Source: Escherichia coli | GTDB taxonomy: Bacteria; Pseudomonadota; Gammaproteobacteria; Enterobacterales; Enterobacteriaceae | Assembly (NCBI RefSeq): GCF_044324875.1 | Contig: NZ_CP172185.1 | Reading direction: 5' to 3' (one strand) | Length of the DNA: 64,000 bases | In this document: piece by piece, positions 12,356 to 54,565 of the stretch | How the letters are laid out: every line of letters starts with the position of its first letter | How positions within the stretch are numbered: the first letter of the stretch is position 1 | Translations under genes and position numbers: made by a program | The notes under the pieces: generated by a model | Database searches by the model: none | What the model saw: the letters and a program-made list of their open reading frames with translations, nothing else | Told to the model about the DNA's origin: nothing

Positions 12356-12415
12356 TTGAACGAGCCGGATGAGCAGTTTTCATCCGGCAATAATTCACAA
12401 GTACACGAGATGGTA

Positions 12416-12946: not shown

Positions 12947-13103
12947 AATGATTTTCTCTGGTAATAAGTCGATTTGTTCATTTCTCTGTTTGGCGATGAT
13001 AAAACGATGACTATTTTATAAAAGTACAGAACTGGACCTTTCATCTATTTCATATCATAAGAAAATATATACTTGAACTGGCTCAGAATAAGCGGAATAC
13101 GAA

Positions 13104-24928: not shown

Positions 24929-25792
24929 ATGAAACAACACCAATCGGCGGATAATTCTCAGGGCCAGCTTTACATTGTACCGACGCCAATCGGCAATCTG
25001 GCGGATATCACCCAGCGTGCGTTGGAGGTATTACAGGCCGTTGATCTGATTGCCGCCGAGGATACGCGTCACACCGGTTTATTGCTGCAACATTTTGGGA
25101 TTAATGCTCGGTTGTTTGCGCTGCACGACCATAACGAACAACAAAAAGCCGAAACGCTGCTGGCGAAGCTGCAAGAGGGGCAAAACATTGCGCTGGTTTC
25201 CGATGCCGGAACGCCGCTAATTAACGATCCTGGCTACCATCTGGTGCGTACCTGCCGTGAAGCGGGGATTCGCGTGGTGCCGCTACCCGGGCCGTGTGCT
25301 GCTATCACTGCGTTAAGCGCCGCGGGTTTACCATCCGATCGTTTTTGTTATGAAGGCTTTTTACCTGCCAAATCAAAAGGCCGCCGTGATGCGCTAAAAG
25401 CCATTGAAGCGGAGCCGCGCACGCTGATTTTTTATGAATCTACCCACCGTCTGTTAGATAGCCTGGAAGATATCGTTGCGGTATTAGGCGAATCCCGCTA
25501 CGTGGTTCTGGCGCGTGAGCTGACCAAAACCTGGGAAACCATTCACGGCGCGCCCGTTGGCGAGCTGCTGGCGTGGGTCAAAGAAGATGAAAACCGTCGC
25601 AAAGGCGAAATGGTACTGATTGTCGAAGGCCATAAAGCACAGGAAGAAGACTTACCCGCCGATGCCCTGCGCACGCTGGCGCTGTTGCAGGCAGAACTGC
25701 CACTGAAAAAAGCGGCGGCGCTGGCAGCAGAAATTCACGGCGTGAAGAAAAATGCGCTGTATAAGTATGCACTGGAGCAGCAGGGAGAGTGA
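24929..25792 (+). CDS. rsmI: 16S rRNA (cytidine1402-2-prime-O)-methyltransferase RsmI
   Basis: Tetrapyrrole-methylase-fold protein; translation matches YraL/RsmI. Confidence 0.92.
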
Positions 25793-25841
25793 TTACAGGC
25801 GTCGCAGCAGGAATAGCGTTGCAACGCCTGTAGCAGGCGAG

Positions 25842-26609
25842 TTAACGACGACACATCTCATCAATCATGCATGTGAAATAGTTATGCAGCCATAAAAATG
25901 AAGCCGGGATAGCGGTAGAGACTTTAGCCGTGAGAAAACGTTCTGTCGCATCCTGCTTTCCTTCGCCAGTCACCAGTAACAAAACTTCGCGGGCATTGAG
26001 AATATCCTTCAGGCCTAAGGTGATCCCACGAGTCACGGGACGGCCCGCAGTTTTTAACATCTCATGTTGCTGTGTTCTGGCATCAAGTTGACTGATATGG
26101 CAGGCCGGTTGCAGGTTTTCTCCCGGTTCGTTCAGCCCAAGATGACCGTTTTTCCCCAATCCGAGAACGCATAAATCCAGACCGCCTTTGCGCGCAATCA
26201 GGTTCGTTACCCGTTCGCACTCTGTCTCATTTATCTCTTCGGAGCGAAAGCTGATGAGTTGGTCTTCACGCAGCCCCAGCGGCTGCACGATATGCTGTTG
26301 TAGGAAAGTTTCGCAGGTGCCAGGCATCGTTAATGGCAGATCCACCCATTCGTCGAGCTTCACGAAGGTGAGCTGGCTGACATCAACCTGCTGCTGGTGG
26401 ATTTTTTCTACCAGATAATGATACGTCAGTAATGGCGTGGCTCCGGTCGCCAGGCAAATCACGGCATCCGGTTTGCTACGGATCACGGCCAATAAATATT
26501 CGCTGGCACGTTCACTTAACGCCATATAGTTTTCAACTTGCTGAAGGGTTTGCACAGGATGAAATTCCTTAAGTAAAGAGGCACCACCAGACGCAGTGCC
26601 TCGTTCCAT
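25842..26609 (-). CDS. agaI: Galactosamine-6-phosphate isomerase/deaminase AgaI
   Basis: NagB-family fold; last gene of the agaSYBCDI operon; N-terminal start not verified. Confidence 0.85.
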   Translation of the reverse strand: MERGTASGGASLLKEFHPVQTLQQVENYMALSERASEYLLAVIRSKPDAVICLATGATPLLTYHYLVEKIHQQQVDVSQLTFVKLDEWVDLPLTMPGTCETFLQQHIVQPLGLREDQLISFRSEEINETECERVTNLIARKGGLDLCVLGLGKNGHLGLNEPGENLQPACHISQLDARTQQHEMLKTAGRPVTRGITLGLKDILNAREVLLLVTGEGKQDATERFLTAKVSTAIPASFLWLHNYFTCMIDEMCRR

Positions 26610-27401
26610 TTACAAAATTCCGAATGCGGAACAAACAATAGAGAGCACAAAAGTCACGCCGATTAACAGCACCGGATGCGCTTTTTTCACCCGCAGGAAG
26701 TAATACATCAGCAGGGTGTAGGCCATCGGTAAAATATTCGGGAAGACTTTATCGAAGAAATCCTGCTGCAGCGCGACGCTGTGGGTACTGTCGATGTCAA
26801 ACGATGTCACCACGTTAATATGAACATACGAAGCGATCAGCCCGCCGATTACCGTGATCCCGAGGATGGTTGCCGAACGGGCAATCATCTGCGAGTTCTC
26901 TCGCACTTTATCGATCGCCTTCACGCCGACTGAATAACCGACGTGGGTCCAGCCGACGCGCAGGAAAAAGATAAGCAGGTAAACGGCGAAAAATAGAATC
27001 GGCCCCAGCAAGTTTCCCTGGCTGGCAAATGATGAGCAAATTCCCGCCATAATCGGCAATAAGGTAAACCAGAAAATCGCATCGCCAATCCCGGCGATTG
27101 GGCCAAACAGTGCTACTTTGAGGCCTTTAATGGTGTCGCGGTTTTCTCCTTTTTCTTCCATCGAAATTAATAACCCCATCAGGAATCCGACCAGATTCGG
27201 GTGGGTATTAATAAATTCGAGGTTATCTTTCATCGCCGCGCTTAGGCCCGGTTTGTCGTCCTTATAAATCTTTTTCAGGATCGGCAACATCGCCCAGGTA
27301 AAACCGCCCGCCTGCATCCTTTCGTAATTAAAGCTCGCTTGCAGCAGTGACGAACGAAAGCCCAGACGGGTGATATCTTTTTTACTGATTTCAGATCCCA
27401 T
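26610..27401 (-). CDS. agaD: PTS galactosamine-specific EIID component AgaD (263 aa)
   Basis: Mannose-family IID membrane protein; internal ATG (MGSEISKKDI...) chosen; track ORF extends upstream into agaC. Confidence 0.88.
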   Translation of the reverse strand: MGSEISKKDITRLGFRSSLLQASFNYERMQAGGFTWAMLPILKKIYKDDKPGLSAAMKDNLEFINTHPNLVGFLMGLLISMEEKGENRDTIKGLKVALFGPIAGIGDAIFWFTLLPIMAGICSSFASQGNLLGPILFFAVYLLIFFLRVGWTHVGYSVGVKAIDKVRENSQMIARSATILGITVIGGLIASYVHINVVTSFDIDSTHSVALQQDFFDKVFPNILPMAYTLLMYYFLRVKKAHPVLLIGVTFVLSIVCSAFGIL

Positions 27402-28194
27402 TGCTGTAGTCCTCTTCTTCATTTTTACTGGCAACGGGCTGCGGTTGCGCTTGCTGCCGGGATTTCGCATTGAAAAACTCATACACCGCAAAGCCTGCGC
27501 CCAGTACGGCAACCGGCAACAGGTTGCTGACCTGGATGTAGCAAACAAACAGGAAACCGGCGATCAGGTAAGGGATATATTGCGCTTTGAACATCACGCG
27601 CAGCAGCAAGCCAAAACCAACGGCAGGCAGAATACCGCCAGCCACTTCAAAGCCGTGGGTCAGCCAGGCGGGCATCGCTTTCACCAGCGCCTGCATCGCC
27701 CCCTGTGCCAGGTAAGTACAGAGGAAAGCAATCACCGCATACGCTGAAGCGACGATGAGCATCGTTGTCCAGTTAAGTCGGGAAAACGCTGCCGTATCCG
27801 CCTCTTTTGCGCATTTATCGGCTTTGGTCATAAATAATGAGAAAGCGGAATAGAAGAACAGAATGACGTACTGCATTAACAAACTAAACGGCAGGCCAAG
27901 ACCAATTGCCGTTTTGGCATCAACGCCCGTAGACCATGCAATGACAGTGGTCATCAGACCCGCCATAATCGGGTTGGGCGGCTGAACACCACCTGCAGGG
28001 GTTAATCCGGCGAAAGCCAACTCTGTCAGACCACCGGTAATTAAGCCAGTCTGAATATCACCGAGAATAGCGCCAGTTAGGGTACAAACGATTATCGGGC
28101 GGAATAAAAATAAGGCTTCCAGCCAAAAATCAATCCCCAGAACGAAAACTAACGCCGCCAGGGATAATCCCTGAAGTAGGGTTATTTCATGCAT
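27391..28194 (-). CDS. agaC: PTS galactosamine-specific EIIC component AgaC (267 aa)
   Basis: Mannose-family IIC membrane protein. Confidence 0.9.
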   Translation of the reverse strand: MHEITLLQGLSLAALVFVLGIDFWLEALFLFRPIIVCTLTGAILGDIQTGLITGGLTELAFAGLTPAGGVQPPNPIMAGLMTTVIAWSTGVDAKTAIGLGLPFSLLMQYVILFFYSAFSLFMTKADKCAKEADTAAFSRLNWTTMLIVASAYAVIAFLCTYLAQGAMQALVKAMPAWLTHGFEVAGGILPAVGFGLLLRVMFKAQYIPYLIAGFLFVCYIQVSNLLPVAVLGAGFAVYEFFNAKSRQQAQPQPVASKNEEEDYSNGI

Positions 28195-28232
28195 TTTTAT
28201 TACCTCAAACCAATATTAAGGCGATTTTAGAT

Positions 28233-28709
28233 TTAGTCAGGGATTTGTTCTTTTTGATCGCCAGGGACGTCCTGAATGAAAACATTCACGCCACGTTGTT
28301 TAATAAAACGTAAGTCCGTGAGATCCTGGTCATCGACATAAACTTTACTGCTGATTTGCTTTTTCCCTTCCGAGAAATGCATATTGCCGACGTTGACATC
28401 TTTCAGGTCAATACCACCTTCTACCAATTTACGTACCGTTTGTGGCGTACGGCAAATCAGGAAGATCTTTTGATGCGGTGCAGCTTTGCCGATGACGTTA
28501 ATGGTTTTTTCGATAGTAAAGAAACGAATGCCAAAGCCGTAGGTTTCTGCGGTAATACTCATTAATTTCTGTTGAATATCATCGTTAGCGACAACATCAT
28601 CCACAACTACCAGCAGATTTGCACCGATGGTAGATGTCCAGGTCACGCCAACCTGACCGTGAACCAGACGGTTATCAATACGGGTTAAGAGAATATTTGG
28701 ACTGCTCAT
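28233..28709 (-). CDS. agaB: PTS galactosamine-specific EIIB component AgaB (158 aa)
   Basis: Mannose-family IIB (MSSPNILLTRIDNRLVHGQVG...). Confidence 0.9.
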   Translation of the reverse strand: MSSPNILLTRIDNRLVHGQVGVTWTSTIGANLLVVVDDVVANDDIQQKLMSITAETYGFGIRFFTIEKTINVIGKAAPHQKIFLICRTPQTVRKLVEGGIDLKDVNVGNMHFSEGKKQISSKVYVDDQDLTDLRFIKQRGVNVFIQDVPGDQKEQIPD

Positions 28710-28875
28710 TGTGTAATCCTCACCATAAAGTTGAATAATATAATTTTTTTAAATATATTATTGTTGCGATATTTTACTGATGTATTTATTAAGGTTTAGT
28801 TATCTCCTTTACCATTAAGGCACTCCCCGATATTAATCGGGAAGTACATTGGGATAAATCATAAAAAACTAATGA

Positions 28876-29748
<873 letters not shown>

Positions 29749-30903
29749 TTATGCCTGCCACGGATGAATGATTACGCCTTGCACCACGCGGTTAACGGTG
29801 CCACTGGCTGATGGGGTATCCGGCGTATTGCCCATGTGCAGCGACTGCATCAGTGCAAACGTCTGGGCGTACATCAGGAAGCAAAATGCCTGCTCAACGT
29901 CGATAAAGTGACGTGACGGTGGCAGGATGATATGTGGACCGGCAGCGACGATGTCGCTGCTTTCCGCGGCGATGGCGATTACACGCATTGCCTGGTTGTC
30001 ACGGCGAAGTTCAGCCAGCAGATCAAGATCATACTGACGGGTGTAAGGGTGGCTGGAGACAAATACCACCACCAGCGTTTCGTTATCGACCAGCGATTTC
30101 GGGCCATGACGGAATCCGGTCGGGGAATCATAAAAGGCCGCCAGTTTACCCGCCGTCAGTTCCAGTACTTTCAGCGCCGACTCGCGTGCTGCGCCCTGTA
30201 AGCCACCGCTGCCGAGATAAACGATCCGTTTCCACGGTGCGTAACCAAACACACCTTCGCTGAAATCGCCCAGTGAGGTCAGGATCGCCTGGCAACGATC
30301 CGCCACGTCGCGGAAGCTCTGGCTGTTGATCGTCTCAGGTGCGAAAACCGCGAGGCAGCTGGCCATCATGGTGGTAATGCTGCTGGTCATCGCAAAGCCG
30401 CGATCGTGCGTTTCTGCGGGCATCAGCAGGGCAAACGCGTTGTCGCTGTTGATCGCGTTTTGGTAAAGAGCGCCCGCTTCGTTGCAGGTGATCGGCAGGT
30501 GATAGCACTCGGGTACAAATTGATTTGCCAGTTCCACGGCGGCGACGCTTTCCGGGCTGTTGCCGGATCGACCGAAGGAGATCAACAGCAGTGGATGAGC
30601 TGGATTCAGGTAGTCCATCGGATTGGTGACCAGATCGGTGGTCGGTACGGCGCTGAAGTTTTTACCGGTATGGCTGGCGAGCCACGGCGCGATGATGTCA
30701 CCGATAAATGCCGAGGTTCCGGCTCCGGTCAGGATTACCCGCAGATTCTCTTTGCGCAGTAACGGTTCAAGGAAGTTATTGAGCGCGGAACGTAGCGCGT
30801 CGATGTTGGTGAGTGAACGGATCCATGCGCGAGGCTGATGGCGGATCTCTTCTTCAGTCCATGTACCGGTTGCGGCAGCAGCAGGGGTGTAATTTTCTGG
30901 CAT
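29749..30903 (-). CDS. agaS: SIS-domain galactosamine-6-phosphate deaminase/isomerase AgaS (384 aa)
   Basis: Tandem SIS domains; first gene of the agaS operon. Confidence 0.92.
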   Translation of the reverse strand: MPENYTPAAAATGTWTEEEIRHQPRAWIRSLTNIDALRSALNNFLEPLLRKENLRVILTGAGTSAFIGDIIAPWLASHTGKNFSAVPTTDLVTNPMDYLNPAHPLLLISFGRSGNSPESVAAVELANQFVPECYHLPITCNEAGALYQNAINSDNAFALLMPAETHDRGFAMTSSITTMMASCLAVFAPETINSQSFRDVADRCQAILTSLGDFSEGVFGYAPWKRIVYLGSGGLQGAARESALKVLELTAGKLAAFYDSPTGFRHGPKSLVDNETLVVVFVSSHPYTRQYDLDLLAELRRDNQAMRVIAIAAESSDIVAAGPHIILPPSRHFIDVEQAFCFLMYAQTFALMQSLHMGNTPDTPSASGTVNRVVQGVIIHPWQA

Positions 30904-31122
30904 AACTCAATCCTTAGTCTGATGAACTTGACGTCGGGCGTTGTCGCTTTCGCTTACCTTTCGTTTCATTTCATTTGGTGATGTCTTTCGTTGATTAAAA
31001 TCTATAGAAAAGAAACTGAAAGTTCAATGGAGAAAAAAGAAATAAAACGAAATTTGTGATCGTTGAAAGAAAAGACAAGGGAAGATTAAAGAATTGCATG
31101 ATGACGTTGCTATGTGCACCGA

Positions 31123-31180
31123 TTGCCGGATGCGGCGTACCGTAGGTCGCATAAGACGCGTCAGCGTCGCATCCGACACC
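31123..31180. repeat. REP-type palindromic element in the agaA-agaS spacer
   Basis: gccggatgcggcg...cgtcgcatccgaca inverted REP cores. Confidence 0.5.
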
Positions 31181-31253
31181 GCTGCACAGATCAAAAAGAA
31201 AGAAAAAGAAAGGCCTTACGGGGGAAGTGAAGGCCCAATAAAGGAGCAAACCA

Positions 31254-32408
31254 TCAAAACGAAGCTAATTGACCCTGAATCCAGATTTGTTGCACATGCA
31301 GCCCGCTATCCAGCGCAACGACGCTGGCGCGTTTGCCCGGTTTAAGCGATCCCAGAACATCATCAACACCCAGCATACGCGCCGGATGCAGCGACGCCAT
31401 ATGGATGGCTTCCGCAGGCGTTACGTCCGTCAACTCGACCATATTGCGCACTGCCGCATCAACAGACAGCGTACTGCCCGCCAGTCCACCGGACGCGGTA
31501 CGGACAACGCCACCGTGCATCTGCACTTCTTCGCCACATAACGTATAGCGACCATCCGGCATCCCGGCTGCCTGCATCGCGTCGGTGATCAGCACGATTC
31601 TCTCTTTTGCACAGCAACAACACAGCGACATCGCCGCCGGATGCACATGATGACCATCGGCTATCAGTTCCAGCCAGGCGCGCTTGTCCGTTAATCCCGC
31701 GCCAACCATTCCCGGTTCGCGGTGATGTAAACCTGTCATCCCGTTATAGCAATGCACCAGGCCGTCGGCACCAGCGTCAAACGCGGCACGGGTTTGTTGC
31801 CAGGTCGCCGCGCTATGCCCCAGCATCACCCGTACGTTTTGCTGTTTAAGATGGCGGATGGCCTGCAATGCCCCTTCTTTTTCCGGTGCCAGCGCTACCA
31901 CGCGCAAGGTGTGCTGAGAAACGGCAATCAATTGATCCAGCTCGGCAATTTCCAGCTCGCGAAACAGCTCCGGCGGATGCGCGCCTTTATTCTGCGGCGT
32001 GAAGTACGGTCCTTCGAGATAACTCCCCAGTACTTGCGCACCAGGTCCGCCGCGTTGGCAACGTTGAGCAATACGTTTCAGCGCCGCATGAATGGTATTA
32101 AGCGGCGCGGTTACGGTGGTCGGTAACCAACTGCCGACACCTTCGCGTGCCTTGTGCATTGCCAGCTTGTCGAGCACATCCGGCGCGTCATCCATTACAT
32201 CAACGCCCGCACCACCGTGTACATGGGTGTCGATGTAAGCGGGGCAGAGCAGTTCCGCATCGCGTTCAGTCACGCCCACTGGAATCGGTTCGATTGCTGC
32301 GATTACACCGTCAGCAATACGCAACTGATGGTCATCGAGCCATCCCTCTTCAGTCAGCAGCCTTCTGGCGCGCAAAACGGGTGTCATATTCCTTCCTCGA
32401 CCGGACAT
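31254..32408 (-). CDS. agaA: N-acetylgalactosamine-6-phosphate deacetylase AgaA, full length
   Basis: NagA-family amidohydrolase with metal-binding His motifs; full-length here (K-12 carries a truncated agaA as I recall); start may be an internal ATG. Confidence 0.88.
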   Translation of the reverse strand: MSGRGRNMTPVLRARRLLTEEGWLDDHQLRIADGVIAAIEPIPVGVTERDAELLCPAYIDTHVHGGAGVDVMDDAPDVLDKLAMHKAREGVGSWLPTTVTAPLNTIHAALKRIAQRCQRGGPGAQVLGSYLEGPYFTPQNKGAHPPELFRELEIAELDQLIAVSQHTLRVVALAPEKEGALQAIRHLKQQNVRVMLGHSAATWQQTRAAFDAGADGLVHCYNGMTGLHHREPGMVGAGLTDKRAWLELIADGHHVHPAAMSLCCCCAKERIVLITDAMQAAGMPDGRYTLCGEEVQMHGGVVRTASGGLAGSTLSVDAAVRNMVELTDVTPAEAIHMASLHPARMLGVDDVLGSLKPGKRASVVALDSGLHVQQIWIQGQLASF

Positions 32409-32818
32409 TCTTCATGGCAGCGGCCTAACTCGTCCACCAAACTGGTCAGCCCACGGTGTCCACACTCCAGCGCCTGCACACGGAACTCTTCACCGCTTAA
32501 CCCTTCGCGCTCCAGCACCATCTCCAGTAGCAGTTGCAAATTGGTGCCGGTGATCACTTCACAGCCCGGTTTTTGCATCGCCAGCGTTGAAGCTACGCGA
32601 AACGGCGTGCCGCCCAGCAAATCTGTCAGAAAAACAATGCCGTCTTCACAATCCAGTTGGGCGAAGGCCTCTTCAAGCTGCGATGTAAGCAGCGCGGTGC
32701 TTGAGGTTTCCGGAAAATCGATGGCGATAAACTGCGATTGCTCGCCGAGGATTTGCTTCATTGCTTTTTCCATGCCGCTGGCAAATCCGCCATGCCCTGT
32801 CAAAATAATACTTAACAT
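32384..32818 (-). CDS. agaF: PTS N-acetylgalactosamine-specific EIIA component AgaF (144 aa)
   Basis: Mannose-family IIA domain (MLSIILTGHGGFASG...). Confidence 0.85.
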   Translation of the reverse strand: MLSIILTGHGGFASGMEKAMKQILGEQSQFIAIDFPETSSTALLTSQLEEAFAQLDCEDGIVFLTDLLGGTPFRVASTLAMQKPGCEVITGTNLQLLLEMVLEREGLSGEEFRVQALECGHRGLTSLVDELGRCHEECPVEEGI

Positions 32819-32835
32819 CTAATACCTCATTGTAT

Positions 32836-33720
32836 TTAAAGGAAATGACAGAATTTACCGACGATACCGAGAACCACGGTAACTGCAATCAGGCGCAGCG
32901 GACTCCAGCCGCGGCGTACCAGCCAGAACATGGTCAGGGTGTAGACCAGCGGTAAGAAGGCAGGCATCAGTTTGTCGATAACATCAGCCTGTAACTTAAC
33001 CACTGCATCGCCAGCGGTGATTTCCAGCGTGGTGCTTAAACGAACATAGGTTGCTACCAGCGCGCCGATTACCGTCATCCCAACGATTGACGCAGCATGG
33101 CCGACTTTTTTGGTATTCGCTTTAATGAGTGGAATCGCCGCCACGCCCATGCGGTAAGCATAATGCGCCAGACCAAAACGCAGCCCCAGGTGTACCACGT
33201 TAAACAGCACAATAAAGACGACTGCGCCAAGAATAGAGCCTTGTAGCGCGAGGCTTGCGCCTATCCCGCCACAAATCGGCAGTAGCGTTAGCCAGAACAT
33301 CGCATCGCCAATCCCGCCGAGCGGCGCACCGACGGCAATTTTGGTGCTCTGAATACTGTTAACGTCCTGCTTAGAACGCTCCATCGCAAGGATAATGCCG
33401 ATAACAAACGTCACCAGAAACGGATGGGTATTGAAGAAACCCATATGCCCTTTCATGGCGCGCGCCAGGTCGCGTTTATTAGTGTGGATCTTTTTCAGAG
33501 CAGGCAGCAGACCGTACAACCAGCCAGAAGCCTGCATACGTTCGTAGTTAAAAGACGCTTGTAACAGCATGGAACGCCAGGCGACGCGGTTGATATCTTT
33601 TTTCGTCAGCTCTGCGCCAATGCTCTGATCTTCATAAACGTTTTCATTAACGCCTGTCAGCAGTGTTTCTTCGTTTTCACTGACGTTCGGCAGGGTGGTT
33701 TGATTAGATGCCATCTTCAA
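32836..33720 (-). CDS. agaE: PTS N-acetylgalactosamine-specific EIID component AgaE
   Basis: Mannose-family IID membrane protein, paralogous to agaD. Confidence 0.88.
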   Translation of the reverse strand: MKMASNQTTLPNVSENEETLLTGVNENVYEDQSIGAELTKKDINRVAWRSMLLQASFNYERMQASGWLYGLLPALKKIHTNKRDLARAMKGHMGFFNTHPFLVTFVIGIILAMERSKQDVNSIQSTKIAVGAPLGGIGDAMFWLTLLPICGGIGASLALQGSILGAVVFIVLFNVVHLGLRFGLAHYAYRMGVAAIPLIKANTKKVGHAASIVGMTVIGALVATYVRLSTTLEITAGDAVVKLQADVIDKLMPAFLPLVYTLTMFWLVRRGWSPLRLIAVTVVLGIVGKFCHFL

Positions 33721-34483
33721 ATTCCTCTTTCTGTGCCGCAGGTTGAGTCGGTTCAGGAGATTTACGCAGCAGGTCGATCAGCGCCATCGCCAGCGCGGCG
33801 GCAGCAATAGCCAGCACCGGTAACTTGAGCCAGGCTGCGGCAACAAAGCCCAGGATGAAGTAGGGGATGTAGACGTTTTTCATCATGATTTTCAGCAGCA
33901 CGGCAAAACCGATTGCTGGCATGATGCCGCCCGCGACGCCGAGGCCGTCGATTAATCGTTGCGGCAGGACATCAATGATGGTTTTGGCATGTTCTGCGCC
34001 GAAGTAGATAGGCAGGAAAGCGCAGAGAAAATAGAAAGTGCCGAGTGCCAGCAGTGCCAGATAGTTCACGCGTTCAATGCCGTGTGTATCGGCGTTCTCC
34101 GCCATCCGGTCGCAGCGGGACATTACGCCAGACATCACCGAGAACAGGAAGGTAATCCCCATCTGTACTGCGACAGCGAAAGGTACGGCGACACCGACCG
34201 CGACATCGGGTTTCACGCCAGTAGTAATGGCAAACGCCGTGCCGACGATAGTACCGATAATCACGTTAGGCGGTTGTGCGCCTGCCAGCGGGGCCAGCCC
34301 CATCCACACCAGTTCCAGCGTACCGCCGGTTAAAATACCGGTATGCAGATCGCCAAGTACCAGCCCGACTAACGGGCCGAGGACCACCGGGCGGTGCATA
34401 TGGGTTAAGCCGTTAAACATATCCAGGCCAGCGATAAAGGCGATAATGCCCAACGCGAATGCCTGCAACAGACTGATTTCCAT
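33704..34483 (-). CDS. agaW: PTS N-acetylgalactosamine-specific EIIC component AgaW, full length (259 aa)
   Basis: Mannose-family IIC membrane protein, paralogous to agaC. Confidence 0.88.
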   Translation of the reverse strand: MEISLLQAFALGIIAFIAGLDMFNGLTHMHRPVVLGPLVGLVLGDLHTGILTGGTLELVWMGLAPLAGAQPPNVIIGTIVGTAFAITTGVKPDVAVGVAVPFAVAVQMGITFLFSVMSGVMSRCDRMAENADTHGIERVNYLALLALGTFYFLCAFLPIYFGAEHAKTIIDVLPQRLIDGLGVAGGIMPAIGFAVLLKIMMKNVYIPYFILGFVAAAWLKLPVLAIAAAALAMALIDLLRKSPEPTQPAAQKEEFEDGI

Positions 34484-34493
34484 GATGAATCCC

Positions 34494-34967
34494 TCAAAGT
34501 AATTTAAAGAGGTCCACAGCAGGCTCTGTCGGGACGCCCTGAACGAAGCATTCCACCCCAGCGGCTTTCAGGTCGTTAAATGCTGCGATATCGCCCGCAT
34601 CCACAGAAACCGTTTTGGCGATTTGTTGCTTGCCATTGGCGTAGTGCATATTGCCAACGTTAATGCGATTCACCGGAACGCCACCTTTCACCAGCGTCAG
34701 GAAATCGGCAGGTGTTTTACAAACCAGCAGGATTTTCTGTCGATCGGCGGCGCGATGAATGTTGTCGATGACTTTTTGCAGCGTCCAGAAACGTACGGCG
34801 ATCCCTTCTGCCAGTACCATTTCCATCAGGTTTTGTTGTACCGGATCTTCGGCAACCTCATCGTTGGCTACCAGCACCAGATTTGCCCCCGCAAATCCGA
34901 CCCACTGAACGCCGACCTGACCGTGAATCAAGCGTTCATCAATCCGGCTTAAAACAATATTTGGCAT
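34494..34967 (-). CDS. agaV: PTS N-acetylgalactosamine-specific EIIB component AgaV (157 aa)
   Basis: Mannose-family IIB (MPNIVLSRIDERLIHGQVG...); internal ATG chosen. Confidence 0.88.
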   Translation of the reverse strand: MPNIVLSRIDERLIHGQVGVQWVGFAGANLVLVANDEVAEDPVQQNLMEMVLAEGIAVRFWTLQKVIDNIHRAADRQKILLVCKTPADFLTLVKGGVPVNRINVGNMHYANGKQQIAKTVSVDAGDIAAFNDLKAAGVECFVQGVPTEPAVDLFKLL

Positions 34968-34989
34968 AGCGTGTTCCTCTTTGTTTTGC

Positions 34990-36270
34990 TTATTGGCCTT
35001 CACAGGCTGTGTGGTACTGCGCCAGGATGTCCTGAATATGGTTGATAATGAGTTCCCGTGGCGTCGGTTGCAGCTTGCCGGAGCGAACTTTCACGTATTG
35101 CAGCGGCAGATACTGGCTGATGAGCGGTAGCGGAATTGGTGAATCCGCCAGATTACGAACCAGATGAGCGAAAGCGTCATCAATCTGGCTGTCCGGCCAG
35201 TAATAGCGCACGCGATCCGAGTAGCTATAACCACGCGCCAGGCGACGTGCGTTGCCGTCACCGTGGTAGTGGCTTTGCCAGTATTCCGGGCGGTCGAGCA
35301 TCACGTTTTCCAGCACCTGACGCAGACCGGAACAGGCTTTCGCTGGTACCAGTTCTTCTTCAATCGCCGCCAGAGAGAACAGAGCTTCACGCAGGGCGAA
35401 GGTCAGCGCCGGGCCAACTTTCAGAATGGCAAAGTGGTCAATCACCAGCTGGCGCAGCGATTGCGGCGTTTGATAATCGGTAGAGTGCGCTTCGAAAATC
35501 AGCGTTTCGTAGTTTTCGACCATCTGGCTTAAGGCGCTCGCTTTGGCGGGCTGATAATCAATAACGTTGGTGTGATCGAATTCGACGCCGGGTTGAACCA
35601 CCAGGGCAATGATGCGTGACCAGATGGCATTCAAACCTTGCTTTTCAAAGGCGTGACGATGGGCTTCCAGCGTGGCGCGGGCGGCATCCGGCGTGGTGAC
35701 CGCCAGCTCGCTTAAGGTTTCATGCGCGCCGCCAGGTACCGGTACTTCGGTACCAATGACATACTCCAGATCGGCTTCGCCAAAGTGTTCAAGACAGGTT
35801 TCTTCCGCCACTTTCGCCAGACGTGCGGCGCGTTCAGCCACGATGTCATCAGTTAAGGGAATTGGATCGTCCTGACAGGACATGCTGCAATCAAGGTGAA
35901 TTTTTTTGAATCCTGCCGCCACGTAGCTTTTAATCAAATCATCGGCATTGGCCATTGCCTGAGCGGCTGGCAGGTTTTGCCAGCGGTTTGGCCCCAGATG
36001 GTCGCCACCCAGAATCAACGCATCCTGTGGGAAATTCAACGAGTCGGCGAGCTGACAAACAAAGCCGCGAAAATCGGCGGGCGTCATTCCGGTATAACCG
36101 CCGAACTGGTCCACCTGATTGGAGGTTGCTTCAATCAGTAACGGCGTTTGGTTTGCACTGGCGTAGCGGATTGCAGCTTCCAGCACCAGCGGATGTGCGG
36201 AACAAACGGCATAAATCCCATTTGTTTTGCCCTCTTTGTGCTGTCTCACCATTTCTGTCAGATGTTTCAC
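34990..36270 (-). CDS. kbaZ: Tagatose-6-phosphate kinase-like protein KbaZ/AgaZ (426 aa)
   Basis: GatZ/KbaZ family; first gene of the agaZVWEFA operon. Confidence 0.92.
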
Positions 36271-36518
36271 TTTCCTCTCCAGTTCAGATTACTGCGATAT
36301 TAATCTTTCGTTTTGTTTCAGTTGATACTGCGCCATGGTGAGATAAAAATAAAACGAAAGATAATAGTTTTCTGATCTGATTCACAAAAGAAACATAATG
36401 AAAGCCACTGAAACGAGAGTAGCTTGCGCCAATGGGTAAGGTGGGCTTGCATTTGCTTAATAGAAAGGCGTTAATAGGCAAAACGAAATGAAACGAAAGT
36501 TTTACGAAAGGACTTACT
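36271..36518. promoter_or_regulatory. Divergent kbaZ/agaR control region with repeated AgaR-operator-like motifs
   Basis: Multiple copies of (a)aacgaaag / ctttcgttt-type repeats (aaaataaaacgaaag, atgaaacgaaag, tacgaaag), typical of DeoR-type AgaR operators. Confidence 0.55.
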
Positions 36519-37328
36519 ATGAGTAATACCGACGCTTCAGGTGAGAAGCGAATGACAGGCACCAGCGAGCGACGAGAACAGATCATTCAGCGTCTGCGAC
36601 AGCAAGGGAGTGTGCAGGTTAACGATCTGTCGGCATTGTATGGCGTATCTACTGTGACGATCCGCAACGATCTGGCGTTTCTGGAAAAGCAGGGGATCGC
36701 TGTGCGTGCCTATGGCGGCGCGTTGATCTGCGATAGCACGACGCCGCCAGTCGAGCCATCAGTGGAAGATAAAAGCGCGCTGAACACCGCGATGAAACGC
36801 AGCGTTGCGAAAGCTGCCGTTGAGTTGATTCAGCCAGGTCATCGGGTGATCCTCGATTCCGGGACCACCACTTTTGAGATTGCTCGTCTGATGCGCAAGC
36901 ACACTGACGTAATTGCGATGACCAACGGTATGAACGTGGCTAATGCGTTGCTGGAAGCGGAAGGCGTTGAGCTGCTGATGACCGGCGGGCATTTGCGCCG
37001 TCAGTCGCAATCTTTTTACGGCGATCAGGCTGAGCAATCGCTGCAAAATTACCACTTCGATATGCTGTTTCTTGGTGTAGATGCGATCGATCTGGAGCGC
37101 GGCGTCAGCACGCATAATGAAGATGAAGCCCGTTTAAACCGCCGGATGTGCGAAGTTGCGGAACGGATCATCGTGGTCACCGATTCCAGTAAATTCAATC
37201 GTTCCAGTTTACATAAGATCATTGATACTCAACGTATCGACATGATCATTGTTGATGAAGGCATTCCTGCGGATAGCCTGGAAGGGCTGCGAAAGGCTGG
37301 GGTTGAAGTGATTCTGGTCGGGGAGTGA
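36519..37328 (+). CDS. agaR: DeoR-family transcriptional repressor AgaR (269 aa)
   Basis: N-terminal HTH and C-terminal DeoR sugar-binding domain; divergent from kbaZ. Confidence 0.93.
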
Positions 37329-37382
37329 GAAAGGGTGCCCGCTGGTCAACACGAATGCGTTCGGCGGGCATTGTGAATACCA

Positions 37383-37847
37383 TCAATCGGTTTCTTCTGT
37401 CTCTCGGGTGAGGGTTTCCCAGTCGGCAGGAGGATGTCCTCTTTTTAACATTTTGCTGAATACGGTATAAGCATCTGTTTTTTTACCGTAGGTGCGCAGA
37501 GTGTTTTCATCGTTCATCCATCCCAGAATGATGACTTTCTCTTTTTCACTATAACGAAAGAAGAGACGATAACGACCAGCACCAAATTTTACCCGTGACC
37601 AGTCTTTATTTTTCCCAGAGCCTAACGACTTGCCATGACGGAATGCCGGTGATGATGGATTGACCGTGATATGCTCCTCAATCACTTTATGGACTACCGC
37701 CAATAACTTTGTGGCGGCTTTTCTCTGATAATTTTCAGGATCTTTTCCCTTTAATGTCTCGACTTCGGCAACTAAAGCGTCGTAGGTTTCCTGAAAACAG
37801 GGATGAGCATATAGCGCCCAACCATTAACCCTTTGTGGAAAATCCAT
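37383..37847 (-). CDS. yhaV: Type II toxin YhaV (ribosome-dependent mRNA interferase, 154 aa)
   Basis: Translation matches YhaV; start overlaps prlF stop (ATGA). Confidence 0.93.
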   Translation of the reverse strand: MDFPQRVNGWALYAHPCFQETYDALVAEVETLKGKDPENYQRKAATKLLAVVHKVIEEHITVNPSSPAFRHGKSLGSGKNKDWSRVKFGAGRYRLFFRYSEKEKVIILGWMNDENTLRTYGKKTDAYTVFSKMLKRGHPPADWETLTRETEETD

Positions 37848-38182
37848 TATTCGTCGTCGCCAATCTCATCATCAATGTTGACGTCCATGCCAGCGACAAG
37901 TTTCTTTCCTTGTTGAATGTTGAATGGACGAGTTTTTTGCGGGTTGTTCTGGATATCTGCATCCAGAAAACGCAAAAATGCATTCATAGTATGATCCTCC
38001 TGTTCATCTCCCAGTCGGCACATAAATACTTGCCCATCAGGCAGAATTTCGTAATGAATGCTGTCCTGGCCTGGCTTCAGTTTTAAGGCCTCACGCACTG
38101 GCGCGGGGATAGTTGTTTGTCCGCGTATCGTGACCTTTGATTCAGTGGTCAGTACAGCGTGAGAGCGAGCATTAGCGGGCAT
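37847..38182 (-). CDS. prlF: Type II antitoxin PrlF/SohA (AbrB-fold, 111 aa)
   Basis: Translation matches PrlF; acidic C-terminal tail DDEIGDDE. Confidence 0.93.
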   Translation of the reverse strand: MPANARSHAVLTTESKVTIRGQTTIPAPVREALKLKPGQDSIHYEILPDGQVFMCRLGDEQEDHTMNAFLRFLDADIQNNPQKTRPFNIQQGKKLVAGMDVNIDDEIGDDE

Positions 38183-38281
38183 GATTCACTGTCCTTTTAC
38201 AGCCTGTTTTCTGCTCAAATTATAAGCTTGAACTAAGGTAATGCAAATGCATTATTAATGGACGTGGGGACTTTAAACAAT

Positions 38282-38308
38282 AAAAACATGGCACTAAGGC
38301 CATGTTTT
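38282..38308 (-). terminator. garD intrinsic terminator (hairpin with T-tracts on both strands)
   Basis: aacatggc-actaa-gccatgtt perfect stem flanked by T-runs on both strands, downstream of the garD stop. Confidence 0.55.
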
Positions 38309-38330: not shown

Positions 38331-39902
38331 TCAGGTCACCGGTGCCGGGTTAAACACCGCCAGCTGGTTATGCAGCCCCCATTGATCCGAGAAGGTTTTC
38401 TTTTTCCCGCTGGCGACGTCGAGAATAAAGTGGAACAACTTCCAGCCCACCTCTTCAATGCTCTCTTCGCCGGTAGCGATAGTGCCCGCGTTAATATCCA
38501 TTAAATCAAACCAGCGGTTCGCCAGCTCGGTGCGGGTTGCCATTTTAATGACGGGTACCGCCATCAAGCCGTACGGCGTACCACGGCCGGTCGTAAACAC
38601 TTGCACGGTGATACCCGAAGCCACCTGTTGCGTGCCACAGACAAAATCGCTGGCTGGCGTCGCGGCGTAAATTAATCCGCGTTTAGTCGGGCGTTGACCG
38701 GGCGACAGCACTTCAACAATTGCACTTTTACCTGATTTAGCAATGGAGCCGAGTGCCTTCTCTACCACGTTTGCCAGACCGCCTTTCTTGTTGCCCGGCG
38801 AAGGGTTGGCGCTACGGTCGGTTTTTCCCATATTGAGATAGTTATCGTACCACTCCATCTCCTCCAGCAGCCGTTTGCCGACCTCTTCGTTCACTGCGCG
38901 TGGTGTCAGCAGATGGATCGCGTCACGCACTTCCGTGACTTCTGAAAACATCACCGTTGCGCCGCAGCGCACCAGTAGATCAGACGCATACCCAACCGCC
39001 GGGTTTGCCGTTACGCCAGAAAACGCATCGCTACCGCCGCACTGCATGCCGACAACCAGTTCTGAAGCCGGACAGGTTTCTCGCTGCCGTTGATTCAGTT
39101 TGTGCAAATGGCGTTCGGCGACCTGCAAAATATCCTCGACCATGGACTGAAAACCGACATGTTTTTCATCCTGCAAACTGACAATGCTGGCGCTTTCTAC
39201 TGGAATAGCTTGCACATCATCCGTTCCAGTCAGCAGGCGCTCAGGCTGCAACTTTTCACAACCCAGACCAATCACCATTACTTCGCCGCCAAAGTTAGGG
39301 TTCAGCGAAATATTGTGAATGGTACGAATAGGCACAACTGCCGCCGGTGCGTTAATCGCCACGCCACAACCGTACAAATGATTCAGCCCCACCACGCCAT
39401 CGACGTTCGGGTATTTCGGTAGCAGATCGCGTTCAATGATTTTTACTACATAGTCCACCACGCCTGCCACACAGTGGACGCTGGTGGTGATGCCGAGCAG
39501 GTTTTTGGTGCCCACGCTGCCATCGGCATTGCGATAGCCCTCAAAGGTGTATCCTTCCAGCGGCGGTAAGGGTGCCGGGACTTTGGTTGCCAGTGGCAGC
39601 GTGTGTAACGGTGGCGCTTCCGGTAGTACAACCATTGATTCGTCGATCCAGCTTCCGCGTGGGATTGCGCGCACGGCGTAACCAATCACTTCGCCATAAC
39701 GAATAATTTCACCATTAGCCGGAATGTCCAGCAATGCGACTTTATGCCCCTGGGGAATATGTTCAATTAATTCCAGCCCATCCGGAAAACGCGTTCCTGC
39801 TTTCAGGCCATTATCATTAACAATAATTGCCACATTATCTGTGTCGTGAACTTTTATATAAAACGCAGTTGGCGTTTCTTGTCTGATTTCGATGTTGGCC
39901 AT
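38331..39902 (-). CDS. garD: D-galactarate dehydratase GarD (523 aa)
   Basis: Translation matches GarD (SAF domain plus dehydratase domain). Confidence 0.95.
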
Positions 39903-52257: not shown

Positions 52258-54552
52258 ATGAAGGTAGATATTGATACCAGCGATAAGCTGTACGCCGACG
52301 CATGGCTTGGCTTTAAAGGTACGGACTGGAAAAACGAAATTAATGTCCGCGATTTTATTCAACATAACTATATACCGTATGAAGGTGATGAATCTTTTCT
52401 CGCCGAAGCGACGCCAGCCACCACGGAATTGTGGGAAAAGGTGATGGAAGGCATTCGTATTGAAAACGCAACCCACGCGCCGGTTGATTTCGATACCAAT
52501 ATTGCTACCACCATTACCGCTCATGATGCGGGATATATTAACCAGCCGCTGGAAAAAATTGTTGGCCTGCAAACGGATGCGCCGTTGAAACGTGCGTTAC
52601 ACCCGTTCGGTGGCATTAATATGATTAAAAGTTCATTCCACGCCTATGGTCGTAAAATGGACAGTGAATTTGAATATCTGTTTACCGATCTGCGTAAAAC
52701 CCATAACCAGGGCGTATTTGATGTTTACTCACCGGATATGCTGCGCTGCCGTAAATCTGGCGTGCTGACCGGTTTACCAGATGGCTATGGTCGTGGGCGC
52801 ATTATCGGTGACTATCGCCGCGTAGCGCTGTATGGCATCAGTTATCTGGTGCGTGAACGCGAACTGCAATTTGCCGATCTCCAGTCTCGTCTGGAAAAAG
52901 GCGAGGATCTGGAAGCCACTATCCGTCTGCGTGAGGAGCTGGCAGAGCATCGTCATGCGCTTTTGCAGATTCAGGAAATGGCGGCGAAATATGGCTTTGA
53001 TATCTCTCGCCCGGCGCAGAATGCACAGGAAGCGGTGCAGTGGCTCTACTTCGCTTATCTGGCGGCAGTGAAATCGCAAAATGGCGGCGCGATGTCGCTG
53101 GGGCGCACGGCATCGTTCCTCGATATCTACATTGAGCGCGACTTTAAAGCTGGCGTACTCAATGAGCAGCAGGCACAGGAACTGATCGATCACTTCATCA
53201 TGAAGATCCGTATGGTACGCTTCCTGCGTACACCGGAATTTGATTCGCTGTTCTCCGGCGACCCAATCTGGGCGACGGAAGTGATCGGCGGGATGGGGCT
53301 GGACGGTCGTACGCTGGTGACCAAAAACTCCTTCCGCTATTTGCACACCCTGCACACTATGGGGCCGGCACCGGAACCTAACCTGACCATTCTTTGGTCG
53401 GAAGAATTACCGATTGCCTTCAAAAAATATGCCGCGCAGGTGTCGATCGTCACCTCTTCCTTGCAGTATGAAAACGACGATCTGATGCGTACTGACTTCA
53501 ACAGCGACGATTACGCGATTGCCTGCTGCGTCAGCCCAATGGTGATTGGTAAGCAAATGCAGTTCTTTGGTGCACGCGCTAACCTGGCGAAAACGCTGCT
53601 GTACGCAATTAACGGCGGGGTGGATGAGAAGCTGAAGATTCAGGTTGGGCCGAAAACGGCACCGCTGATGGACGACGTGCTGGATTACGACAAAGTGATG
53701 GACAGTCTCGATCACTTCATGGACTGGCTGGCGGTGCAGTACATCAGTGCGCTGAATATCATTCACTACATGCACGACAAGTACAGCTACGAAGCTTCGC
53801 TGATGGCGCTACACGATCGTGATGTCTATCGCACCATGGCGTGCGGCATCGCGGGCCTGTCGGTGGCGACGGACTCCCTGTCTGCCATCAAATATGCCCG
53901 CGTGAAACCAATCCGTGACGAAAACGGCCTGGCGGTGGACTTTGAAATCGACGGCGAATATCCGCAGTACGGTAACAACGACGAGCGCGTAGACAGCATT
54001 GCCTGCGATCTGGTTGAACGCTTTATGAAGAAAATTAAAGCGCTGCCAACCTATCGCAACGCCGTCCCTACCCAGTCGATTCTGACTATCACTTCTAACG
54101 TGGTGTACGGCCAGAAAACCGGTAACACGCCAGACGGTCGTCGTGCGGGTACACCGTTCGCACCGGGCGCTAACCCGATGCACGGTCGTGACCGCAAAGG
54201 TGCGGTAGCCTCGCTGACGTCGGTGGCGAAACTGCCGTTCACCTACGCCAAAGACGGGATCTCGTACACCTTCTCGATCGTGCCTGCGGCGCTGGGCAAA
54301 GAAGATCCAGTACGTAAAACCAACCTTGTCGGCCTGCTGGATGGGTATTTCCACCACGAAGCGGATGTCGAAGGCGGTCAACACCTCAACGTCAACGTAA
54401 TGAATAGGGAAATGCTGCTGGATGCCATCGAGCACCCGGAAAAATATCCTAACCTGACAATCCGTGTCTCTGGCTACGCCGTGCGCTTCAACGCACTGAC
54501 CCGTGAACAGCAACAGGATGTTATTTCACGTACTTTTACCCAGGCGCTCTGA
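52258..54552 (+). CDS. tdcE: 2-ketobutyrate formate-lyase / pyruvate formate-lyase TdcE (764 aa)
   Basis: Glycyl-radical enzyme; C-terminal RVSGYAV glycyl radical motif. Confidence 0.95.
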
Positions 54553-54565
54553 CGCCGGAGGATGT

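Follow-up and report, generated by a model that had tools for sequence, protein, structure and literature searches.

The closest described system to the locus analyzed here is the PrlF (SohA)-YhaV pair of Escherichia coli K-12 (b3129-b3130; Schmidt et al. 2007). K-12 YhaV is toxic when present alone, and PrlF neutralizes it by direct binding (PMC8546651, PMC7781912). The toxin cleaves mRNA before G in a ribosome-dependent manner, with a codon-phase bias, a downstream G preference and a bias towards the 5′-end (PMC8546651, PMC11980606); a table in one of these papers also cites earlier work reporting activity independent of the ribosome (PMC8546651). In K-12, both genes are part of a single transcript and the antitoxin is translated more (PMC5535158). 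A review that cites Schmidt 2007 states that the prlF promoter has a palindrome to which the PrlF-YhaV complex binds, and the same source describes the bound form as a hexamer, PrlF2-YhaV4 (PMC7781912).

Related pairs are found on mobile elements, with 328 plasmid records in the family, 175 of them conjugative. These plasmid and phage-plasmid pairs, such as those of ~90-kb elements in Salmonella enterica, have the same gene order, proteins of 111 and 153 amino acids and a 1-nt overlap (TGATG) between the genes. They are ~60–67% identical to the pair described below, are located beside phage anti-repressor genes or on plasmids, and plausibly act as maintenance (addiction) modules. In contrast, the copy analyzed here is chromosomal, near-core and syntenic.

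Identity of the operon and comparison with K-12

The DNA analyzed was a 64,000-nucleotide stretch from E. coli (the window). Its minus strand at 37383..38182 almost certainly contains an intact chromosomal operon of the type II toxin-antitoxin class, prlF-yhaV, which corresponds by orthology to b3129-b3130 of K-12 and occupies the ancestral position between garD and agaR. The antitoxin and putative autorepressor gene prlF (sohA; 37847..38182, minus strand) starts with ATG and encodes 111 amino acids, with a predicted N-terminal AbrB/MazE/SpoVT-type domain at about residues 12–57 followed by an acidic C-terminal tail. The toxin gene, yhaV (37383..37847, minus strand), also starts with ATG and encodes 154 amino acids. 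YhaV matched Pfam PF11663 (Toxin_YhaV) with 181.9 bits (cut-off 35, E = 7.8e-54) over profile positions 1–137 of 138. PrlF matched Pfam PF15937 (PrlF_antitoxin) with 143.1 bits (cut-off 32) and, over its full length, the NCBIfam equivalog NF007429 with 170.8 bits (cut-off 125). Matching genomes in RefSeq have the same genes annotated as prlF and yhaV. The identification as a PrlF-YhaV type II system, proposed in the first-pass annotation, was therefore borne out by the family profiles, the ~99% identity to K-12, the gene order and the RefSeq annotation, and there is no evidence that contradicts it.

Figures for the K-12 comparison were obtained with MG1655. Seven nucleotide differences and no indels were found in 1021 aligned bases, which include both genes and both intergenic regions. 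The two loci share the protein lengths, the TAATG junction, the palindrome, the −35 and −10 boxes and the garD and agaR neighbors, and the proteins, which are ~99% identical, differ only by PrlF G49D and YhaV H154D. The first-pass annotation had also described both genes as intact, and this was confirmed by ORF calling and the K-12 alignment: two open reading frames with no frameshift or premature stop occupy exactly 37383..38182. The alignment was inspected as well for a frameshift or an inactivating substitution in yhaV, and none was present.

Judged from the alignments, the two substitutions affect positions that are not conserved; both are frequent as natural alleles, and benign. The exact window proteins are widespread in public databases, PrlF with D49 on 575 contigs and YhaV with D154 on at least 1000. 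Residue 49 of PrlF is usually D or G in the wider family, where it stands beside a near-invariant G50, and in the closest enterobacterial homologues G49 is conserved. Each of the 30 columns that are invariant among 34 aligned members is retained in YhaV, including R85, K87, R92, R94, R98, N112, D113, R118, Y120, K123, D125 and Y127, and the only YhaV change, H154D, is within the hypervariable C-terminal tail. An alignment of 1611 nt from five E. coli lineages had no gaps, and the promoter, the palindrome and the junction were invariant. The nonsynonymous/synonymous ratios, rough values from five sequences only, were 0.14 for yhaV and 0.28 for prlF.

Expression signals and predicted protein folds

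The gene directly upstream of prlF on the coding strand is garD (38331..39902, minus strand). Between them there is an intrinsic terminator-like hairpin (38283..38308, minus strand) with a 10-bp stem (AAAACATGGC/GCCATGTTTT), a 6-nt loop and a T-rich tail after it, which separates garD from the prlF promoter; it is invariant in five E. coli lineages and kept in an 81% identical relative (L013). A sigma-70-like operon promoter was predicted at 38219..38247 (minus strand), consisting of a −35 box TTTGCA (38247..38242), a 17-nt spacer and a −10 box TATAAT (38224..38219). It agrees with the consensus at 10 of the 12 positions, which is a consensus match only, and is invariant in the five lineages. 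This was the one promoter-like site that the scan detected upstream of prlF, and none of comparable quality was detected before yhaV. The −35 box is overlapped by a perfect palindrome, TAATGCA-NN-TGCATTA (38239..38254, no strand), whose 7-nt arms are 100% complementary; it too is invariant in the five lineages, and it is conserved in the 81% relative. On account of this sequence and of the secondary-source statement that the complex binds a promoter palindrome, we infer that the element is a candidate PrlF-YhaV operator for autorepression.

The two genes meet at the sequence TAATG (37845..37849, minus strand). The prlF stop codon TAA occupies 37849..37847 and the yhaV ATG 37847..37845, with the A at 37847 in common; the coding strand reads ...GAC GAC GAA TAA TGG ATT..., and the K-12 junction is identical. 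The ATGA stop/start overlap of the first-pass annotation was therefore incorrect, since the two genes overlap by one base rather than four. The translational coupling proposed with it is nevertheless well supported. While prlF is preceded by a Shine-Dalgarno sequence, AAGGA (38192..38196, minus strand), at a spacing of ~8 nt to the ATG and with an anti-Shine-Dalgarno duplex of −5.3 kcal/mol, yhaV has none of its own (−2.8 kcal/mol, where the background averages −2.92). Homologues ~60–80% identical retain the 1-nt overlap, which reads TGATG in the 81% relative and in another, 67% identical one (L010). The missing yhaV Shine-Dalgarno sequence is better support for coupling than the overlap alone. 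With no ribosome-binding site and a start codon that overlaps the prlF stop by one base, YhaV synthesis most likely depends on the ribosomes that translate prlF. This agrees with the reported polar effect on yhaV of the prlF1 allele, which also causes derepression (PMC12107188).

A GC-rich hairpin (37336..37370, no strand) lies beyond yhaV, in the 54-nt intergenic region that it shares with the convergent agaR (36519..37328, plus strand), and is possibly a terminator common to both genes. A strong terminator after yhaV was considered and rejected: the 81-nt stretch containing the hairpin has a folding energy of −20.2 kcal/mol (z = −1.64), no significant gain in stability over shuffled sequence, and the terminator scan made no call there. 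Matches above the Rfam gathering threshold in the window were rnpB, SraG, the S15 leader and naRNA4, and the search of the region from 36 to 39 kb showed no known RNA in or near prlF-yhaV.

A search of the PDB by sequence with both proteins found no PrlF or YhaV structure, only chance matches (the designed ThreeFoil, a galectin), and the folds are therefore assigned from predicted models. PDB entry 2KHE, presented as YhaV in a figure of PMC7781912, was discarded because it is the RelE of T. thermophilus (Foldseek rank 13). The AlphaFold2 model of YhaV (pLDDT 90.6, pTM 0.87) matched PfiT, a ParE-like protein (6.6e-5), and E. coli RelE (4fxe/4fxh, target-normalized TM 0.72–0.79) in Foldseek searches of the PDB, and the next ~40 matches were RelE, HigB, YoeB and ParE toxins. 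YhaV is thus predicted to have a RelE/ParE-type (BECR) alpha/beta fold, with a likeness that extends to M. tuberculosis RelE1 and RelE2. Compared with these toxins, YhaV is larger, 154 amino acids as opposed to ~95; it has a helical extension at the N-terminus and a C-tail that varies, and it belongs to a separate Pfam family (PF11663) with 8–16% identity to the solved toxins. As in RelBE-type systems, the antitoxin gene comes first and the operon is reported to be autoregulated; unlike in RelBE, the antitoxin is of the AbrB/MazE type and not of the RelB (ribbon-helix-helix) type, and the reported PrlF2-YhaV4 stoichiometry is unusual (PMC7781912).

The PrlF model had pLDDT values of 90–92 over residues 11–50. 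Its residues ~12–57 superposed on SpoVT (2w1t) with an rmsd of 1.3–1.4 Å over 42–43 residues (Foldseek probability 1.00), and the domain also matched the AbrB N-domain (1yfb) and E. coli MazE (2mrn, 2mru, 1mvf), the best matches being at 1.3–1.8 Å. The E-values were weak (0.02–1) because the matched domain has only ~45 residues. Weak sequence matches point in the same direction, with 19.4 bits for MazE_antitoxin PF04014 (cut-off 24.7) and 27.0 bits for AbrB TIGR01439 (cut-off 28.3); both scores are just under the thresholds, so the relationship is based on the fold, which is predicted to be the swapped hairpin of AbrB, MazE and SpoVT. The toxin partner of PrlF has a RelE fold and not the MazF fold of the MazE partner. 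An AbrB/MazE-type antitoxin joined to a RelE-fold toxin makes PrlF-YhaV a “mix-and-match” pairing, as already described in the literature.

These features suggest the following mechanism. A single promoter of the sigma-70 type, located after the garD terminator and, like it, recognized from consensus matches, would produce the bicistronic prlF-yhaV mRNA that the literature describes as a single transcript. PrlF would be translated from its own AAGGA site and YhaV, most likely, by ribosomes that have just finished prlF, an arrangement under which the toxin would be made in amounts no greater than the antitoxin. PrlF would dimerize through its swapped-hairpin N-domain and bind YhaV probably through its C-terminal part, and the PrlF2-YhaV4 complex, which according to the literature represses the operon from a promoter palindrome, may do so here at the TAATGCA-NN-TGCATTA candidate operator. 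Free YhaV, with its predicted RelE fold, would be a ribosome-dependent mRNA endonuclease by analogy with the K-12 protein, from which it differs by one residue. In physiological terms, the chromosomal copy may serve in a stress response, be what is left of a selfish addiction module, be linked with the Lon protease, or have some other role.

The heptanucleotide tract and the role of PrlF

Codons F87–Q91 of prlF contain a tandem heptanucleotide tract, CATTCAACATTCAACA (ATTCAAC in two copies; 37911..37926, minus strand), which in the window is in the wild-type two-copy state. This tract is a known slippage hotspot, and a 7-bp duplication in it generates the prlF1 allele (PMC7686311, PMC12107188). 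The duplication recurs in laboratory evolution, where it confers resistance to carbenicillin, aztreonam and D-valine together with lower ompF expression (PMC7686311). Natural genomes also carry expanded tracts. Although the two-copy state dominates, three or more copies were present in ~19 of 5144 complete genomes; the natural E. coli alleles among complete genomes range from 3 to at least 10 copies, and Shigella sonnei records include PrlF variants that imply up to ~19. Some forms preserve the reading frame (5 and 8 copies) and others shift it. The 81% relative does not have the repeat. Among the papers available to the literature search, none was found that describes natural variation of the prlF heptamer, including in Shigella sonnei.

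Observations of this kind could lead to another reading of the operon, in which its main product is PrlF as a regulator of proteostasis (Lon, export, envelope stress, porins), YhaV is secondary and the toxin-antitoxin behavior is incidental and tuned by slippage. The gene prlF came to light through suppression of htrA and protein-export defects, the prlF1 allele increases the activity of Lon (PMC7781912, PMC12107188), and the recurrent duplication with its resistance phenotypes and the expanded tracts in natural genomes fit the same idea. However, all these phenotypes come from a mutant allele that in addition relieves repression of the operon and changes how YhaV is expressed, and they do not distinguish effects of PrlF from those of YhaV. 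The rarity of expanded tracts and the absence of the repeat in the 81% relative are further arguments against it. In addition, purifying selection is stronger on YhaV than on PrlF, which argues that the toxin matters. We consider this reading unlikely, and a toxin-antitoxin operon remains the preferred one.

Distribution, surroundings and significance

The order garD-prlF-yhaV-agaR is common to the window and K-12, and the same synteny was found in strains Ch1, E5, 035152, O157 and 042 and in one 81% relative. Strain Ch1 matches the window with 100% identity at the toxin-antitoxin locus but with only ~99% over its full length, and is missing a 1.4-kb segment; strain 042 has this segment at 100% identity and a different PrlF allele. 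Among 5426 complete E. coli genomes, 5135 have at least 80% of the locus, in every case with garD and agaR on its two sides, and 259 gave no match to it. The locus is near-core and syntenic in E. coli. In strain EC23HZZ201, an IS1-associated deletion took prlF-yhaV together with the entire aga cluster. The first-pass annotation had placed the module at the boundary of two sugar-catabolism islands. The site is indeed between the gar and aga loci, flanked by garD and agaR, but the term islands does not apply to gar and aga, which are near-core loci themselves.

The module had also been called the only one of defence or stress type in the window. As far as the following scans reach, the statement is correct for toxin-antitoxin and defence modules. 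No defence system was found by PADLOC in the 68 window ORFs, and the annotation of a collinear genome ~99% identical to the window shows no other toxin-antitoxin pair. The PADLOC scan produced 36 family matches, all of them generic-domain matches to housekeeping genes (DeaD, AgaR, TdcF and YhbW) that were rejected: 33 helicase-model matches to DeaD, a WYL/HTH model match to AgaR, a C3a156 match to YhbW, and a PD-T4-2_B match (1.9e-30) to the RidA (L-PSP) domain encoded by tdcF, a metabolic gene. The genes yhbS, yraN, yhaB and yhaC were checked as the source of the last match and all were negative. With regard to stress, the claim is too broad, since the window also includes deaD, pnp, yhbO, dolP and yhbQ, which are stress-related by annotation.

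If the operon functioned mainly in anti-phage abortive infection, as some other type II systems do, it would be the sole true defence system of the window. Validated defence systems include toxins of the RelE/ParE superfamily (PMC11980606, PMC9519451), and the family is found on the mobile elements mentioned above, including Salmonella contigs with phage anti-repressor genes. Nevertheless, PADLOC-DB v2 has no family that matches PrlF or YhaV at E ≤ 0.01, no phage protection by PrlF-YhaV is reported in the literature found, and a review gives the trigger of the system as unknown (PMC7781912). The locus is near-core and syntenic among sugar-catabolism genes, and not in a defence island. A primary role in phage defence is therefore very unlikely. 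That prlF-yhaV is a decayed, dead remnant kept by drift only, with PrlF G49D or YhaV H154D inactivating, is barely credible. In its favor, decay is frequent among chromosomal toxin-antitoxin loci, the locus can be lost without obvious harm (the EC23HZZ201 deletion, the 259 genomes with no match) and G49 is conserved in the closest homologues. Against it, both frames are open, every invariant YhaV residue is kept with H154D in the hypervariable tail, Asp is common at PrlF residue 49 in the wider family, the two alleles are widespread, the nonsynonymous/synonymous ratios are well under 1, and the lineages compared show no variation in the promoter, the palindrome or the junction.

The prlF-yhaV toxin-antitoxin operon of the window is well known, intact and at its usual chromosomal site, and is therefore an ordinary, already described feature of E. 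coli. As a discovery it has little value: apart from two benign substitutions, it is the textbook K-12 operon at its normal location. The value of the analysis is in the correction of the junction to TAATG, and in tying the coupling to a real feature, the lack of a yhaV ribosome-binding site together with a conserved 1-nt overlap. It also shows that the prlF heptamer, a hotspot of laboratory evolution, is variable in natural genomes. From this variation, it might be proposed that the ATTCAAC tract is more than a laboratory hotspot and acts as a naturally used, reversible contingency switch, which we regard as quite unlikely. If this were the case, changes in copy number would toggle the PrlF C-terminus, the repression of the operon and the coupling of YhaV, and would give rise to a subpopulation that differs in Lon activity, in porin levels and in its tolerance of beta-lactams, with the window representing the ground state.

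The prlF-yhaV pair and its predicted products

ORF calling showed that the interval 37383..38182 consists of exactly two minus-strand ORFs, both with an ATG start: prlF (37847..38182), coding for an antitoxin of 111 amino acids, and yhaV (37383..37847), coding for a toxin of 154 amino acids. An intact garD (38331..39902, minus strand, 523 amino acids) lies 5′ of prlF on the coding strand, and agaR (36519..37328, plus strand), followed by kbaZ, is convergent with yhaV. The order garD, prlF, yhaV, agaR (opposite strand), kbaZ and the gene lengths are identical in E. coli K-12 MG1655. The garD gene adjoining prlF in E. coli 042 (NC_017626.1) is annotated as frameshifted, in contrast to that of the window. 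YhaV matched the Pfam model Toxin_YhaV (PF11663) with 181.9 bits (threshold 35), and PrlF matched PrlF_antitoxin (PF15937) with 143.1 bits (threshold 32) and the NCBIfam PrlF equivalog model with 170.8 bits (threshold 125). The family profiles, the K-12 orthology and the garD and agaR neighbors thus agree with the identification, made in the first-pass annotation, of a PrlF-YhaV module between the gar and aga loci.

Alignment with K-12, the check proposed in that annotation for its claim that both genes are intact, showed no insertions, deletions or frameshifts in either of them. There is one nucleotide difference in prlF, which results in the substitution G49D, and three in yhaV, two synonymous and one that results in H154D. 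An alignment of 1611 nt, in which the window was compared with K-12, O157:H7 and two further, divergent lineages, had no gaps. YhaV carries 30 of the 30 residues that are invariant in a 34-member alignment of homologues 49–99% identical, and position 154 belongs to a C-terminal tail that varies in length and sequence in the same alignment; no evident inactivating substitution was thus found in the toxin gene. In PrlF, Gly49 is conserved in the closest enterobacterial homologues, and column 49 of a 62-member alignment reaching down to about 30% identity is mostly Asp or Gly, next to the nearly invariant Gly50. The predicted structure places residue 49 in a turn between two strands. The exact PrlF(D49) and YhaV(D154) proteins were found on 575 and at least 1000 contigs in public collections, respectively. 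Since both positions are variable among homologues and both alleles are already widespread, G49D and H154D are ordinary allelic variation.

A sequence search of a 2026 copy of the PDB found no solved structure of PrlF, YhaV or a detectable relative, and both structures were therefore predicted. The YhaV model (pLDDT 90.6) matched almost exclusively toxins of the RelE/ParE superfamily, including PfiT, HigB, HigB2, YoeB, ParE, M. tuberculosis RelE1 and RelE2, and E. coli RelE, with a target-normalized TM score of 0.72–0.79 against E. coli RelE. The PrlF model had a pLDDT of 81 overall and above 90 in the N-domain, and its first ~45 structured residues superpose on SpoVT, AbrB and MazE (1.3–1.8 Å for the best matches). 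PrlF scored just below the curated cut-offs of the MazE and AbrB sequence profiles, so this relationship rests on the fold. The predicted folds agree with the published pairing of a RelE-class toxin with an AbrB/MazE-class antitoxin (PMC7781912). A figure in that review labels PDB 2KHE, which is Thermus thermophilus RelE, as YhaV.

Expression signals and the stop/start junction

A clean terminator-like hairpin (38283..38308) lies 3′ of garD and is followed by a promoter-like site (38247..38219) with a −35 box TTTGCA, a 17-nt spacer and a −10 box TATAAT (10 of 12 consensus matches). The −35 box is overlapped by a perfect palindrome, TAATGCA-NN-TGCATTA (38239..38254). Both boxes, the palindrome and the stop/start junction are invariant in five E. 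coli lineages, and the palindrome and −10 box are kept in a metagenome-contig homologue of the pair that is 81% identical in YhaV. According to secondary literature, the operon is repressed by a PrlF2-YhaV4 complex that binds to a palindromic sequence in the promoter of prlF (PMC7781912, PMC12107188). The palindrome at 38239..38254 is then a candidate operator of the pair.

The junction reads GAC GAC GAA TAA TGG ATT on the coding strand. The prlF stop codon TAA and the yhaV start codon ATG have a single A in common, at position 37847, so that the overlap is TAATG, 1 nt long, and identical in K-12. The 4-nt ATGA overlap given in the first-pass annotation is the sole factual error of an otherwise confirmed observation, the interpretation of which is supported. 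The translational coupling that had been deduced from that motif gained support on other grounds. While prlF is preceded by a Shine-Dalgarno sequence, AAGGA, ~8 nt from its ATG (anti-SD duplex −5.3 kcal/mol), the best anti-SD pairing in the 25 nt preceding yhaV, located at 16 nt, has −2.8 kcal/mol and does not improve on the mean over the whole window (−2.92 kcal/mol). The 1-nt overlap is conserved, as TGATG, in a Salmonella homologue (about 60–67% identical) and in the 81% relative. A single transcript has been described, with an antitoxin-to-toxin mRNA ratio of ~1 and a higher predicted translation of the antitoxin (PMC5535158), and the prlF1 frameshift reportedly has a polar effect on yhaV (PMC12107188). 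From the lack of a Shine-Dalgarno sequence, the conserved overlap and this literature we infer, with good support, that yhaV is translationally coupled to prlF.

Distribution, origin and genomic surroundings

Of 5426 complete E. coli genomes, 5135 contain 80% or more of the 1011-bp locus, at 5187 places (median one per genome). All but one of these places are chromosomal, and in the genomes inspected the pair was always located between garD and agaR. The 81% relative has the same garL-garP / garD-prlF-yhaV-agaR-kbaZ-agaV-agaW layout. This shared layout argues that the position of the pair is ancestral rather than the result of a recent insertion. The G+C content, ~44–47% across the pair against ~55% in garD and kbaZ, is compatible with an old horizontal origin. 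Rough nonsynonymous/synonymous ratios from five lineages (0.14 for yhaV, 0.28 for prlF and 0.02 for the adjoining end of garD) indicate purifying selection on the pair, looser than that on its metabolic neighbor. Strain EC23HZZ201 (NZ_CP168035.1) has IS1A directly after garD, then yraI, and lacks prlF, yhaV, the entire aga cluster and yraH. This natural knockout shows that the toxin-antitoxin pair is dispensable.

In other places the family is mobile and was found on 328 plasmid records, mostly at less than 60% identity, 175 of them conjugative. In Salmonella enterica contigs of ~90 kb, the PrlF/YhaV pair with about 60–67% identity adjoins Phage_pRha and ANT anti-repressor genes, and a 92.7-kb Salmonella plasmid record carries a YhaV-family toxin 66% identical to that of the window. 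These neighbors and the plasmid record suggest that the Salmonella pairs are a phage-plasmid maintenance module. A large E. coli plasmid record (NZ_MG591698.1, 353,691 bp) includes a copy of the pair that shares 98% identity with the chromosomal type, and three PLSDB "plasmid" records of 4.8–4.9 Mb look like mislabelled chromosomes.

The pair had also been called the only defense/stress-type module of the window. When 68 of its ORFs were scanned with PADLOC, there were 36 family matches, all to generic domains in housekeeping genes: 33 helicase models matching DeaD, a WYL model matching the AgaR helix-turn-helix, an oxidoreductase model matching YhbW, and PD-T4-2_B, the C-terminal part of which matched the RidA/L-PSP domain of tdcF (54503..54955, in the tdc operon; 1.9e-30). 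All were rejected as defense genes, and the tdcF match could pass for one in automated scans. No other toxin-antitoxin pair is annotated in a collinear genome ~99% identical to the window. The claim therefore holds for toxin-antitoxin and defense modules, although PADLOC does not list PrlF-YhaV among its systems; it does not extend to stress genes, since deaD, pnp, yhbO, dolP and yhbQ are annotated with stress roles.

Elsewhere in the window, a 1.4-kb accessory segment (~12356..13830) lies between mtr (11111..12355, plus strand) and yhbW (13801..14808, minus strand). Strain Ch1 lacks it, just 183 of the 5426 complete E. coli genomes have it, and in EAEC 042 it is 100% identical. It holds a 176-amino-acid ORF (12416..12946, minus strand) with no match in Pfam or PADLOC and a gene for a 239-amino-acid L,D-transpeptidase-like protein (13104..13823, plus strand; YkuD PF03734, 1.1e-6), the 3′ end of which overlaps yhbW. 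The N-acetylgalactosamine/galactosamine genes of the aga/kba cluster (~25800..36300) are seemingly complete. Full-length ORFs for agaW, agaE, agaF and agaA/nagA are present, like in Ch1; the K-12 annotation gives agaW and agaA as pseudogenes and lists neither agaE nor agaF in the interval that separates the two. At the rsmI/agaI boundary (24929..26609), rsmI comes directly after agaI, as in Ch1, and the fimbrial genes yraI-yraK are absent; EC23HZZ201 has yraI, yraJ and yraK immediately before rsmI.

The feature is thus the PrlF-YhaV system already described in K-12; its alleles are common ones, and it occupies the usual near-core position.

The ATTCAAC repeat in prlF

Within prlF, a tract at 37911..37926 (minus strand) holds two tandem copies of ATTCAAC (37925..37912 on the coding strand), the wild-type state; the tract had gone unmentioned in the first-pass annotation. 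A 7-bp duplication, which gives three copies, is the classical prlF1 allele, recurrent in laboratory evolution, in which the operon is derepressed, Lon activity is raised and ompF expression is lowered, with resistance to carbenicillin, aztreonam and D-valine and collateral peroxide sensitivity (PMC7686311, PMC12107188). The hotspot itself is therefore already known.

Copy numbers in complete E. coli genomes were deduced from the match span of a 10-copy query, with 10 or more as the ceiling. Two copies are the rule; three were found in 11 genomes, 4, 5, 6, 7 and ~9 in one genome each, and at least 10 in three, so that roughly 19 of 5144 genomes have at least three. Among database PrlF variants, those of 118 and 125 amino acids have in-frame FNIQHST insertions that correspond to 5 and 8 copies. 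Those of 130, 137, 144 and 151 amino acids are out of frame, end in an alternative frame with a stop 22 nt inside yhaV, and are especially frequent among Shigella sonnei records. Protein records of this species point to as many as ~19 copies, with both in-frame and out-of-frame forms.

The tract is a natural variable-number repeat. The literature searched gave no description of such a natural copy-number series in prlF, which may consequently be under-described. It is quite unlikely that the heptamer tract serves as a contingency switch in nature; such a role would concern the gene family in general rather than a property specific to this window.
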